Source: Porphyrobacter sp.
GTDB taxonomy: Bacteria; Pseudomonadota; Alphaproteobacteria; Sphingomonadales; Sphingomonadaceae
NCBI GenBank assembly: GCA_027531395.1
Contig: JAPZRO010000001.1
Span: 544,377 to 608,376 of the forward strand
Length of the DNA stretch: 64,000 bases
Reading direction: 5' to 3'
Shown here in pieces: positions 2,112 through 36,475 of the stretch. The notes beneath the pieces were generated by a model, which was not told the DNA's origin, did no database searches, and saw only the letters and a program-made list of their open reading frames with translations. Position numbers and translations under genes: made by a program. The stretch's first letter is position 1; each line of letters opens with the position of its first letter.

Positions 2112-3827
<1,716 letters not shown>

Positions 3828-33676: not shown

Positions 33677-33844
33677 ATGGCGAAGCCCACCACCGTCAAG
33701 ATCCGCCTCGTCTCGAGCGAGGGCACCGGCTTCTTCTACGTGACCAAGAAGAACCCGCGCAACATCACCGAGAAGATGAGCTTCCGGAAGTATGATCCCG
33801 TCGCGCGCAAGCACGTCGAGTTCAAGGAAGCCAAGATCAAGTAA
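33677..33844 (+). CDS. rpmG: 50S ribosomal protein L33
   Basis: Not in track (55 aa). Product is [55 protein letters not shown]. Confidence 0.95.
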
Positions 33845-33855
33845 GATCGGCTTCG

Positions 33856-33890
33856 CGCGCCCTGCCGCAATGCGGGGCGCGATAATTCAT
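33856..33890 (+). terminator. rpmG terminator hairpin
   Basis: 10-bp stem (33856-33865 with 33872-33881, one G-U pair), 6-nt loop, followed by ATAATTCAT. Confidence 0.5.
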
Positions 33891-33925
33891 CGACAGTTCA
33901 AGCCTCCGGCCCTAGGCGCTGGCGG

Positions 33926-34597
33926 ATGATCACAAACCGCATTTCCGCCCGTTCGCTGCTGCTCGGCCTTGGTGCCGGCACGCTTGCGCTTGGCCTCGTT
34001 CCCGCGCTCCCTGCCGCCATCGCCCCCGCGCCGCTTGCCGCGCAGTCCGGCGGCCAGCTCGACGCGGTCGTCACCGCCCTGCGCGCGATCAGCACGATGC
34101 GCGCGGACTTCACCCAGACCGACCGGCAGGGCAATGTCATGACCGGCGTAATGACCCTGAAGCGCCCGGGCAAGATCCGCTTCGATTACGGCAAGAATTC
34201 GGACTTCCTCGTCATCTCCAACGGCAAGTCGCTGTTCGTGGTCGACTACGAGGTCAACCAGGTCGAACGCTGGCCGATCGGCAATTCGCCGCTGGGCGCG
34301 CTGTTCGATCCCGAGCGCGATGTGAAGCGTTACGGCAAGCTGGTGCAGACCGGGAACCCGGATGTCATCAGCGTCGAGGTGCGCGATCCCAAGAAGCCCG
34401 AATTCGGGATGATCAACCTGATTTTCGTGCGCCAGCCCTCGGCCCCGGGTGGCTGGCAGCTGACCCATTGGGTCGCGCTCGATGCCCAGAACAACCGCAC
34501 GCGGGTGCAGCTGACGAATCAGCGCTACGGCGTGCCGGTGGCCGACAGCACGTTCACCTTCCGCGATCCGCGCCGCTCGGCCCGTCGTCCGGGATGA
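33926..34597 (+). CDS. lolA: LolA-family outer-membrane lipoprotein carrier protein
   Basis: 223 aa. Signal peptide, then FTQTDRQGNVMTGVMTLKRPGKIRFDY...LVISNGKSLFVVDYEVNQV, the typical LolA pattern. Confidence 0.78.
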   Translation: MITNRISARSLLLGLGAGTLALGLVPALPAAIAPAPLAAQSGGQLDAVVTALRAISTMRADFTQTDRQGNVMTGVMTLKRPGKIRFDYGKNSDFLVISNGKSLFVVDYEVNQVERWPIGNSPLGALFDPERDVKRYGKLVQTGNPDVISVEVRDPKKPEFGMINLIFVRQPSAPGGWQLTHWVALDAQNNRTRVQLTNQRYGVPVADSTFTFRDPRRSARRPG

Positions 34598-34622
34598 ACG
34601 GAGCTTCGACGAACGGTTGTAT

Positions 34623-34648
34623 GGAAACGACAGAATTGCGCCGCCGTT
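34623..34648 (+). promoter_or_regulatory. EcfG (general-stress sigma)-type promoter candidate
   Basis: GGAAAC (34623-34628), then N16, then CGTT (34645-34648). The alphaproteobacterial EcfG/SigT consensus is GGAAC-N16/17-CGTT. One mismatch or insertion in the -35. Confidence 0.4.
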
Positions 34649-34652
34649 CATG

Positions 34653-34816
34653 TAGCTGAAAGCCTCTTTCGGCTAATCATTCTCAACAAGGCGCGGCTGA
34701 AGGGCGGTTTCCCCCCTGTTGCCCACCCTTCGCAAGAAGCCCCGCCTTGTACACAGCGTGACGAACGCTCCATGGAACCCTCGACCCACCGCCCCCGGGT
34801 CGAGGGTTTTTGTTTG
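34653..34816 (+). ncRNA. candidate ~165-nt structured sRNA (GsrN-like features) or structured lolA 3' UTR
   Basis: Four consecutive hairpins. HP1 34654-34674 has a 9-bp stem. HP2 34686-34750 is a long irregular stem whose 15-nt loop is UUUCCCCCCUGUUGC. HP3 is 34754-34768. The last is a canonical terminator at 34776-34816. No credible ORF. An EcfG-like promoter lies just upstream. Confidence 0.4.
34776..34816 (+). terminator. canonical Rho-independent terminator
   Basis: AACCCTCGACCC (34776-34787) pairs with GGGTCGAGGGTT (34797-34808), with a 9-nt loop, followed by TTTTTGTTT. Only the plus strand has a U-tract. Confidence 0.8.
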
Positions 34817-34992
34817 GGGGGTGAACACAAGCCCACTTTCTCGCGCCGGCCCGAAGCGATCCGGTAGCGAAGTCGCGCTGGATCGGCCGCAAAGCGACCG
34901 CAAGGCCGAACGGCCGCCGCGCCTTATGGCGCGAAAGCCAAGCGGGCCGGACGGCCCGCGCCCGGCGCTTGAGGGCGCAAACAAAAGACTCC

Positions 34993-36378
34993 CTACTTTT
35001 CCCAGCCAAGCGCCTTGCGGATGATGGAGTAGATCACGTTCTGCTCGATCACGCCGCGGGCGCGGTCTGCGCCGGGGCCGGTGGCGAACAGGGCGACATC
35101 CTCGCCGCCGTGGGTCTCGATGCCGGTCGGCACCAGCGATTGCTGCCGCGCGGCGATGCCGGTCTGCGGCACGGGCCGCTCCCCGCTCACCGCGCCCGGG
35201 CCATTGGCGTAGCCCAATGTGGTGTAGGGCTTGCCGTCCGCCGCCAGCAGGGGCGAGACGCCGTCGCCGCCATCCTCGCCGCTGCCCTTGGGCGGCACCA
35301 CCAGTCCGAGGATATCGTTGCCGCGCTTGGGATAGCCGGCGATGGTGAAGACGTGGCTGTGATCGGCGGTGACCATGATCAGCGTCTCGGCCGGATTGGT
35401 GTGATCGACCGCCCATTGCACCGCGCGGGCGAACTCGACCGCTTCTTCCAGCGCGAAGCCGGCCTGTCCGGCGTGGTGGCCGTGATCGATCCGCCCGCCT
35501 TCGACCATCAGGTAGAACCCATCGGGATCGGCCTCGAGCCGCGCGATCGCCTGCGCGGTCATGTCGGTGAGAGTCGGCTCGGTGGAGTCCGCCTTGCGCT
35601 CGGCCATGAAGCTCATGTGGCTGGGATGGAACAGCCCGAGCACCGGCTTGTCCATCGGCGCGGCGGCGAGTTCGGCGGCGCTCTTGACCACCACCCCGCC
35701 GTTCTTCGCGGCCCAGGCTCCGGGCAGATCAGCCGCCGCATCACCGCGCCGTCCACCCGCCTGCTTGCCGTAGAACATCGCCGTCCCGCCCCCGAGCGCC
35801 ACGTCGAAGCGCGCCTCGGCCAGCTGGAGCGCGATGTCCTTGCAGCCCTGCCCCTGCTGGTCGGCGGGGATATTGGTGTCGCTCTCCCAGTCGCGGTCGG
35901 CGCTGCGCGAATAGACGCTGGCGGGCGTAGCGTGAGTGATGCGGGTGGTGGTGACGATCCCCAGCGCGAGCCCGCGCGCCTTCACTTCCTCGCCCAGCAA
36001 GGGCAGCGGATGCGCCAGCGCGTCCTTGCACACGCCCTTTTCCGCGTCCGGCCCGATCCCCAGCACCCCGATGCGGGTCTTGAGGCCCGAATGAATCGCG
36101 GTCGCCGTGCCCGCAGAATCGGGCACCTGCGCGTTGGTGTTGTAGGTCTTGACCAGCGCGACATTGGGGAAGGTCTCGAAGCTGAGGCGGTTTTCCTCCC
36201 CCGTCTCCCCGCGCTTCTGCGCCTCGTAGATGCGCGCGGCGGTGATGGTGGAGATGCCCATGCCGTCGCCGATGAACAGGATGACGTTCTTGGCGCGCGG
36301 CTCGGCGGGCGCGTCCTCGGCCAGCGCAGGCATGGCGGCAGAGGTCAGTAGCAGGGCGGCAAACAGGGTGCGGGTCAT
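34993..36378 (-). CDS. phoA: alkaline phosphatase (PhoA family), secreted
   Basis: 461 aa. Signal peptide, DGMG, active-site VPDSAGTATA, GGRIDHGHH and TADHSH metal ligands. Confidence 0.92.
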   Translation of the reverse strand: MTRTLFAALLLTSAAMPALAEDAPAEPRAKNVILFIGDGMGISTITAARIYEAQKRGETGEENRLSFETFPNVALVKTYNTNAQVPDSAGTATAIHSGLKTRIGVLGIGPDAEKGVCKDALAHPLPLLGEEVKARGLALGIVTTTRITHATPASVYSRSADRDWESDTNIPADQQGQGCKDIALQLAEARFDVALGGGTAMFYGKQAGGRRGDAAADLPGAWAAKNGGVVVKSAAELAAAPMDKPVLGLFHPSHMSFMAERKADSTEPTLTDMTAQAIARLEADPDGFYLMVEGGRIDHGHHAGQAGFALEEAVEFARAVQWAVDHTNPAETLIMVTADHSHVFTIAGYPKRGNDILGLVVPPKGSGEDGGDGVSPLLAADGKPYTTLGYANGPGAVSGERPVPQTGIAARQQSLVPTGIETHGGEDVALFATGPGADRARGVIEQNVIYSIIRKALGWEK

Positions 36379-36475
36379 GAGGGGCCTCCGGGAACGGGCC
36401 CAGCCCTATCGCGCCCCAAAGCGACATGAAAGTGAAAGGTAGAAACTTGGCGAAATGGTGCCTAAGTCCGCCCCC

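Follow-up and report, generated by a model that had tools for sequence, protein, structure and literature searches.

A lolA-linked family of structured RNAs with invariant C-rich loops in Porphyrobacter and its relatives, read as a probable 3'-embedded small RNA

Introduction

Exposed C-rich motifs are used by RsaE, RNAIII, RepG and 6C to pair with G-rich mRNA, and in enterobacteria several small RNAs (sRNAs) are embedded in the 3' untranslated regions (3' UTRs) of protein genes, among them MicL within cutC, CpxQ from cpxP, DapZ from dapB, and SroC. MicL and CpxQ are tied to envelope homeostasis and stand under sigma-E or Cpx control; linkage of an sRNA to lolA would suggest the like. Here we describe a structured RNA element directly downstream of lolA in Porphyrobacter sp. 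(Sphingomonadales), found within a stretch of 64,000 nt that we call the window (assembly GCA_027531395.1, contig JAPZRO010000001.1, forward-strand positions 544,377 to 608,376; coordinates below count from its first letter), and we weigh whether it is an sRNA of this 3'-embedded kind.

In Alphaproteobacteria, GsrN of Caulobacter crescentus, together with the systems cited alongside it, pairs exposed C-rich motifs with G-rich mRNA segments, and homologues of GsrN are restricted to Caulobacteraceae by BLAST (PMC5869019). A first-pass annotation of the window had proposed such a general-stress sRNA, driven by EcfG/SigT, for the present locus. Sphingomonads and erythrobacters are environmentally abundant and important in biodegradation, and one sRNA, SuhB, is characterised for them in the literature that we searched; it is the only sRNA characterised in Sphingopyxis granuli TFA (bioRxiv 10.64898/2025.12.09.693200). 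Within that literature we found no sRNA tied to lolA for sphingomonads, and the invariant sequences described here appear in none of its papers.

A conserved RNA follows lolA

The gap between lolA and the convergent phoA measures 395 bp, as had been annotated and as the gene coordinates and Pfam assignments confirm (Table 1). On its + strand lies a non-coding RNA whose C-rich loop is exposed and conserved and which carries an intrinsic terminator of its own, so that this core of the first-pass annotation is supported; sequence and minimum free energy (MFE) fold confirm where it had placed the hairpins, the terminator and the 15-nt C-rich loop. The element is a genuine, conserved, single-copy RNA family. 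On balance, we read it as a structured sRNA of ~155 nt (about 34658-34816, +) linked to the 3' end of lolA, released from it and probably acting in trans by base pairing through C-rich seeds.

Conservation was followed outward from LolA. Using the protein as a handle, 80 loci were fetched from named genomes, all of them Erythrobacteraceae or close metagenome-assembled genomes; a homologue of the element, at 71-93% nucleotide identity, stands immediately after lolA in 78 of these, and the other two end at contig edges, leaving lolA upstream of the element in 78/78 informative genome loci. Scanning metagenome contigs with the exact pattern CCCCCTGTT-N25-55-GCGTGACGAACGC added at least 120 further loci. 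Among the matches listed, lolA is immediately upstream in 110/120, with LolA 43-94% identical, and in 9 of the other 10 the upstream sequence is too short to judge. Over the genomes and the listed metagenome matches together, linkage to lolA holds in 188/189 informative loci, with a median of 49 nt between the lolA stop codon and a conserved YRTTCAT motif. As LolA is at least 65% identical among the Erythrobacteraceae sampled by name and falls to 43% identity in the metagenome loci, the family reaches far beyond the named Erythrobacteraceae, and its range probably takes in the whole order Sphingomonadales.

A covariance model (R1), built from 39 Erythrobacteraceae sequences with a hand-checked structure and used to realign 100 sources, detects a single copy per source, on the strand of the element, in all 100 including the window; its three extra matches are weak, antisense (E >= 0.0024) and overlap the elements of loci L087, L089 and L092. 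Being single-copy, the element is not a dispersed repeat.

The one informative locus in which the RNA does not stand behind lolA is L083 (3198-3362, -). There the open reading frame (ORF) upstream, on the same strand and ending at 3441, codes for a protein with a Ferritin-like domain (PF00210, E = 2e-23), with a GDT1 cation antiporter gene further out; this placement argues for a separable, autonomous gene.

Structure and covariation

The MFE fold of 34655-34816 (+) has four hairpins at -69.8 kcal/mol (z = -5.5), and 0/200 dinucleotide shuffles fold as well. The minus strand folds nearly equally (z = -4.7); GC-rich palindromes fold on both strands, and the strand was therefore called from the U tract, present behind the stem on the + strand only. 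All four annotated hairpins are thus present in the window, although the family keeps fewer of them: in ~200 loci, conservation, covariation or both are seen for hairpin 2, hairpin 3 and the terminator, which bears out the expected conservation of hairpins and C-loop in relatives, whereas hairpin 1 is not conserved. Invariant in the genome loci are GGTTTCCCCCCTGTTGCC, AGCGTGACGAACGCT and the terminator loop GCCCCCG, set among variable stems, a patchiness that a structured RNA would be expected to show; for the metagenome members, loop invariance has to be read knowing that the retrieval pattern itself contains CCCCCTGTT. Among the matches listed, a loop of 16-18 nt and a hairpin of 13 nt stay unchanged while LolA diverges to ~43% identity.

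In the R1 alignment of 101 distinct sequences, to which the next counts refer, 92.6% of cells are paired as against 69.4% in shuffles, and 30/37 pairs are altered on both sides by compensatory changes. The covariation score is 0.531, compared with 0.155 for shuffled alignments (0/500 reach the observed value) and with ~0.09, 5-6x lower, when partners are slid by 1-3 columns. Hairpin 2 carries much of this: all 20 of its pairs are changed on both sides, and all four of its helices covary, with 85-98% of cells pairing in each. In the terminator, compensatory changes affect 9/12 pairs, with 99.9% of cells paired.

Independent of that model, when RNAalifold is run on a structure-blind MAFFT alignment, the outer stem of hairpin 2 and the terminator again show compensatory changes. 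For the wide family, the MAFFT alignment (A2) proved too inaccurate inside hairpin 2 for RNAalifold, and the covariance-model alignment took its place. Alignment-free MFE folds of single sequences leave at least 8/9 of the C-motif unpaired in 99/128 and form hairpin 3 in 104/128. Hairpin 3 is invariant in 79/79 genome-derived copies, which were not selected on its sequence; its four core pairs never vary, so that covariation is silent on it and its support is that invariance together with the single-sequence folds.

As a conserved helix, hairpin 1 was rejected: in the four registers tried, its inner pairs are paired in about a third to half of the sequences (about 35-45% in the wide family), the level of chance, and the hairpin is confined to the window sequence and its closest relatives. 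The alignments show the 5' 30 nt rather as a segment of fixed length, for the most part unpaired, that bears G(A/C)(A/C)AG and (C)UA; the RNA's 5' end is probably near G34658.

The element lies directly 3' of lolA on the same strand, and by sequence and terminator scan no terminator separates the two. The lolA transcription unit has this element as its 3' end, and the RNA stops at the only terminator after lolA, which it shares with lolA read-through transcripts. The stem of this terminator, with its 9-nt loop, escaped a simple terminator scan that admits loops of up to 8 nt.

No ORF of sensible composition had been seen here, and none emerges from the family: indels are not multiples of three, the ATG at 34772 is not conserved, and a long minus-strand ORF overlapping the element has no Pfam match. 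The C-rich loop has no second copy within the window. Rfam 15 gave 0 matches across the window at the gathering threshold and a best E of 2.1 in a permissive scan of the region, in agreement with the earlier view that the element is not transfer-messenger RNA (tmRNA), signal recognition particle (SRP) RNA, 6S RNA or a riboswitch.

Table 1. Features of the lolA-phoA interval and its flanking genes in the window
Feature	Position	Strand	Basis or remark
rpmG (ribosomal protein L33), gene preceding lolA	33677-33844		Pfam E = 3e-16
lolA coding sequence	33926-34597	+	Pfam LolA, E = 3.7e-22
GTTGTA block	34616-34621	+	column counts, 79 sequences
(A/G)CGACA block, 11 bp from GTTGTA	34627-34632	+	column counts, 79 sequences
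YRTTCAT (window: CGTTCAT)	34645-34651	+	sole upstream motif conserved family-wide
Hairpin 1	34655-34673	+	not conserved
RNA 5' region (putative)	34658-34685	+	GAAAG at 34658-34662 is the conserved G(A/C)(A/C)AG; alignments A1, A2, A4
Invariant UA inside CUA	34673-34675	+	alignments
A/U-rich single-stranded stretch UAAUCAUUCUCA	34674-34685	+
Hairpin 2, four stacked helices bearing the apical loop	34686-34750	+
Near-invariant GGUUUCCCCCCUGUUGCC	34706-34724	+	invariant columns in alignments A1, A2, A3
15-nt apical loop UUUCCCCCCUGUUGC	34708-34722	+	proposed seed for G-rich targets
Hairpin 3, AGCGU-GACGA-ACGCU	34755-34769	+	core GCGUGACGAACGC invariant
Intrinsic terminator, 14-bp stem then U tract UUUUUGUUU	stem 34774-34810, tract ending 34816	+
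Terminator C-rich loop ACCGCCCCC	34788-34796	+	conserved
phoA (alkaline phosphatase), convergent	34993-36378	-	Pfam Alk_phosphatase, E = 9e-113

Two sequence details of the RNA deserve record. GAACG/CGTTC recurs at 34594-34601, 34611-34616, 34644-34651 and 34762-34767, that is, as TGAACGG at the lolA stop, as CGAACGG 15 nt on, as the complement CCGTTCA in the -10-like motif and as GAACG within hairpin 3. In a transcript that begins upstream, CGUUC could pair with this last GAACG; since both partners are invariant, such pairing is beyond the reach of covariation. In locus L160 (10303-10486, -), the terminator is set off from hairpin 3 by an insertion of ~35 nt (GCTCTGCCTGCAAAGTGCTTTGGGCGTTTTTATGAC), which makes an additional hairpin carrying its own U tract.

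Upstream motifs and a candidate promoter

Upstream motifs were counted in 176 distinct family members and, column by column, in 79 Erythrobacteraceae copies. YRTTCAT is located 6 nt before the conserved G of the RNA (YRTTCAT-N6-G(A/C)(A/C)AG); its TTCAT is nearly invariant in the 176, and with the preceding dinucleotide the motif begins CGTT in 98, TGTT in 40, CATT in 27 and TATT in 7. GCGACA stands exactly 13 nt before YGTTCAT in 108/176 members, and another 10-11 bp upstream comes a second element, which is GTTGTA in Erythrobacteraceae but a further GCGACA(A) in other clades. In those clades, a tandem (T)GCGACAA-N3-GCGACAA of 10-bp period, 13-35 nt upstream of YGTTCAT, takes the place of the window's GTTGTA-N5-GCGACA (loci L114, L131, L200, L088, L092, L105, L140, L155 and L166 among them).

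Judged by spacing and composition, the tandem GCGACAA repeats look like a two-site operator for a regulator, the GTTGTA and CGACA blocks are candidate binding sites for one, and YRTTCAT may be either a -10-like promoter element or a processing signal. Fixed spacing of the upstream blocks, variable spacers and the want of predicted RNA pairing together suggest a promoter with tandem regulator sites in its -35 region, a geometry that an OmpR/PhoB-type response regulator would fit. That the blocks are instead RNA structure was considered and dropped: RNAalifold predicts nothing in columns 1-95 of alignment A1, and variable spacers of fixed length favour constraint at the level of DNA, as is typical where proteins bind; the same pattern speaks for a separate gene.

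None of the named candidates fits convincingly. A sigma-70 consensus scan of the lolA-phoA gap gave no site, and sigma-70, sigma-32, sigma-54 and Caulobacter sigma-73 spacings, fitted by hand to GTTGTA/CGACA/GTTCAT/GAAAG/CTA, all failed to fit. ChvI was rejected as regulator, its published motifs TTGC-N3-GCAA and GCC-N8-GCC (PMC9731502) being unlike the GCGACA repeats. PhoB is a less likely candidate, which we do not adopt: TGTCGC resembles a Pho half-site and recurs in the phoA promoter, but the orientation is reversed, the period is 10 bp in several clades, and GCGACA-N4-GCGACA-like matches are not enriched in the window. As for a regulon within the window, the upstream motif matches exactly only at the element itself.

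Gene neighbourhood

The genes around the element encode a pseudouridine synthase, an RF-1 domain protein, rpmG, lolA, phoA, an exo/endonuclease-phosphatase family protein and ribA. A GC-rich hairpin (33850-33878) lies between rpmG and lolA. In many distant loci the protein upstream of lolA instead terminates in ...GRR(D/E)VL..., and this gene, going by that C-terminus, is putatively ftsK.

A conserved [AG]TTCA-N6-[GA]TTCAA(K)(S)C motif stands 25-50 nt before the lolA start codon in 146/166 loci; the window copy is ATAATTCATCGACAGTTCAAGCC at 33882-33904, within the 33880-33925 interval that ends at the lolA ATG (33926). In more distant loci CTGAAC-N6-GGAAC(C)-N5-6 precedes it, giving GGAAC-N18-GTTCAA, which is readable as a promoter of the extracytoplasmic function (ECF) type or as a nested palindrome TGAAC..GGAACC..GGTTCA..GTTCAA. 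GTTCA is common to this motif and to the YRTTCAT of the sRNA. The upstream motif might thus represent a regulatory site that both have in common; an ECF-type promoter for lolA or a structure in the 5' UTR are further readings.

Beyond the sRNA terminator, the remainder of the gap (34817-34992) is very GC-rich with several palindromes, includes a minus-strand stem (34942-34959) that resembles a terminator for phoA, and is not conserved in relatives, the alignments parting immediately past the terminator. In many relatives another convergent gene stops within a few bases of that terminator (...GCAGGCCTGCATAA, minus strand), which suggests that the terminator may be bidirectional. Some 45-65 nt before the phoA start, 36421-36441 (minus) reads CTTTCAC-TTTC-ATGTCGC, a plausible Pho box in the 7-4-7 layout; it includes TGTCGC, the reverse complement of the GCGACA block adjoining the sRNA.

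Proposed mode of action and alternative readings

If the element works as an sRNA, either a promoter of its own just past lolA or cleavage of the lolA mRNA would release it. With such a promoter, the -10-like YRTTCAT, 6 nt before the conserved G, would serve with the tandem GCGACA/GTTGTA sites that occupy the -35 place in many clades. The RNA would then accumulate at ~155 nt and act in trans, its CCCCCCUGUUG loop, and perhaps the GCCCCCG loop of the terminator, pairing with G-rich stretches such as Shine-Dalgarno regions or the 5' leaders of targets. A chaperone such as Hfq would probably assist the pairing; the A/U-rich single strand and the U tail of the terminator would suit Hfq.

Several points weigh against this trans-acting sRNA. 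Its 5' end, its promoter activity and the existence of a discrete short transcript are what we infer from sequence. For the proposed pairing of the C-loop with targets, for which prediction against G-rich leaders had been suggested, a search of the window and 1.39 Mb of related loci returned no recurrent G-rich site, and is underpowered without whole genomes. Invariance over 13-18 nt exceeds what a typical sRNA seed requires, and a bound protein could be the reason. Because it was fitted to the R1 structure, the covariation alignment leans towards it; the slid controls, the MAFFT-only result and the alignment-free folds nevertheless agree, and we therefore regard the covariation signal as real. 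Finally, in 29 loci YRTTCAT begins 0-19 nt past the lolA stop and no -35 is conserved, so that processing or a purely cis role is equally plausible there.

A narrower version of the sRNA would make it a dedicated post-transcriptional regulator of lipoprotein or outer-membrane biogenesis, coupled to lolA and governed by an envelope-sensing response regulator through the tandem GCGACA sites, with the related GTTCA-N6-GTTCAA motif before lolA joining the gene and the RNA in one regulon; we propose this tentatively, as distinctly less probable than the general case. To the same tentative degree, it might be the counterpart of MicL/Lpp or CpxQ in bacteria whose outer membrane has sphingolipid in place of lipopolysaccharide.

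Perhaps the element is instead a cis-acting 3' UTR of lolA, serving termination, protection of the 3' end, decay or the binding of a protein that acts on the mRNA, with no function in trans. Strict linkage to lolA (188/189 informative loci), the lack of a terminator between lolA and the element, and the 29 loci with the conserved 5' motif 0-19 nt past the stop and no conserved -35 are all as such a 3' UTR would have them. Mere stabilisers, however, rarely hold loops of 13-18 nt invariant while LolA diverges to 43%, the L083 element follows a ferritin-like gene, and the fixed-spacing blocks upstream in 108/176 members resemble a promoter or operator. The layout itself is shared by many known 3'-UTR-embedded sRNAs, CpxQ, MicL, DapZ and SroC included, which also counts against an exclusively cis role. 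We consider a purely cis-acting element unlikely.

It is also conceivable, at a still lower level of probability, that the invariant loops (CCCCCCUGUUG, GACGA and GCCCCCG) are not seeds and are recognised by a conserved RNA-binding protein, the RNA acting as a binding platform or sponge. The invariance of 16-18 nt in loop 2 and of 13 nt in hairpin 3 while the stems covary, and above all a hairpin 3 that is wholly invariant, stem included, would be natural for a protein site. Against it stand the absence of a known protein partner and of repeated GGA- or ANGGA-type motifs, and the recurrence of C-rich loops as a base-pairing device in GsrN and, by a weak resemblance, in 6C RNA.

An EcfG-dependent counterpart of GsrN is improbable

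The first-pass annotation had gone further and seen an EcfG/SigT general-stress sRNA, a counterpart of GsrN whose C-loop would act on G-rich leaders such as that of katG. We find this as improbable as a protein-binding platform. In its operational form the EcfG/SigT motif is a strict GGAAC and CGTT 15-17 nt apart (PMC5869019). The bases annotated as GGAAAC-N16-CGTT at 34623-34648 are indeed there, but an extra A takes the site out of the consensus; whether taken as GGAAA-N17-CGTT or as GAAAC-N16-CGTT, it matches with one mismatch. Matches of that quality number 5 and 18 in the window against ~10.7 expected per spacing (~20 at such quality expected), the frequency of chance, and the strict motif was found 0 times in the window with 0.6 expected. 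The same bases score on the minus strand too, as AACG...CGTT is palindromic. A half-palindromic EcfG motif (GGAAC...GTTCC-like) is easily mimicked by AACG...CGTT, and a single near-match is thus no evidence for general-stress control.

Across the family the picture is similar. Strict GGAAC-N16/17-CGTT occurs in 0/79 Erythrobacteraceae copies, and perfect GGAAC at N15-17 in 0/176 distinct members, of which 98 have CGTT. Within Erythrobacteraceae there is a mild enrichment of GGAAC-like pentamers (1-2 mismatches) at N15-17, 55/78 as against 7/78 at control offsets, which favours EcfG; among the metagenome members, -35 matches at this spacing do not surpass those at control offsets. Within the upstream region, conservation is moreover lowest at the supposed -35 (G-R-A-W-R) and lies instead in its flanks GTTGTA, CGACA and YGTTCAT; the window's GGAAAC (34623-34628) overlaps this poorly conserved gap and the first two bases of the CGACA block (34627-34628).

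In Sphingopyxis granuli, of the same order, the EcfG -35 is 'highly conserved' and the -10 flexible, tolerating CGTT, TGTT and CATT (PMC7083833). These variants are the ones that the family shows, which agrees with EcfG control; the agreement is weak evidence because the invariant part is TTCAT and not CGTT, and it is the highly conserved half of the motif, the -35, that is missing. Taken together, neither the dependence on EcfG/SigT nor the kinship with GsrN could be upheld. Neither ecfG, nepR nor phyR is beside the element at this locus. Rebuilding GsrN from published probes (nt 10-57 and 62-89; 76/112 nt) gave local scores of 16 and 12, no better than 136 and 286 of 500 shuffles, and Tien et al. 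report 'no apparent gsrN-like gene' in Erythrobacter litoralis (PMC5869019). What remains of the GsrN type is the C-rich apical loop, present and invariant in the family by fold and alignments, with six C's as in the rebuilt GsrN loop GCCCCCCGA.

That the whole is non-functional, a lolA terminator preceded by chance hairpins or a repetitive extragenic palindromic (REP)-like palindrome, has almost nothing to commend it: GC-rich genomes do fold well on both strands (minus strand z = -4.7), but conservation and compensatory covariation across ~200 loci are not products of chance folding, and the element is single-copy, unlike REP elements.

Comparison with known systems

GsrN (CCNA_R0081; PMC5869019) and the lolA-linked RNA are both alphaproteobacterial, both expose a loop with six C's, which in GsrN pairs with G-rich mRNA sites and here is proposed to do so, and are of similar size (112 nt and ~155 nt). 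GsrN has a strict sigma-T/EcfG promoter, whereas here the -35 is absent; the two share no sequence similarity; and GsrN usually lies beside the general stress response locus (not in C. crescentus itself), while the neighbours here are lolA and phoA. The likeness to GsrN is limited to the use of a C-rich loop.

6C RNA (RF01066; Actinobacteria, B11 in mycobacteria) likewise has two stem-loops with C-run loops, and it gave the top bit score when the distant member L130 was scanned against Rfam, at 23.7 against a gathering threshold of 47 (E = 0.26), over hairpin 3 and the terminator. It belongs to another phylum, shows no lolA linkage and lacks the long four-helix hairpin; the resemblance is convergent and not one of membership. 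The alpha-r14/CcsR 'cuckoo' RNAs, with their CCUCCUCCC loops, and SuhB/MmgR (RF00519) come from the same class of bacteria and have anti-Shine-Dalgarno-like loops, but the element has no Rfam match and its loop is CCCCCCUGUUG, not CCUCC; SuhB, furthermore, has 61 nt and is LysR-activated, in contrast to the ~155-nt RNA after lolA.

It is with the 3'-UTR-embedded sRNAs of enterobacteria that the layout agrees: same strand, directly downstream of a coding sequence, and a terminator in common with the upstream protein gene, as found in 188/189 informative loci. In those systems an internal promoter or processing generates the sRNA, and they have no sequence or structural homology to the lolA-linked RNA. 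The element is best placed as an uncatalogued RNA family of the 3'-embedded sRNA kind with C-rich loops, neither a homologue of GsrN nor a recognisable target of EcfG. Its fixed position after an essential envelope gene comes with strong covariation, and the extraordinary conservation of its loops implies a conserved partner.

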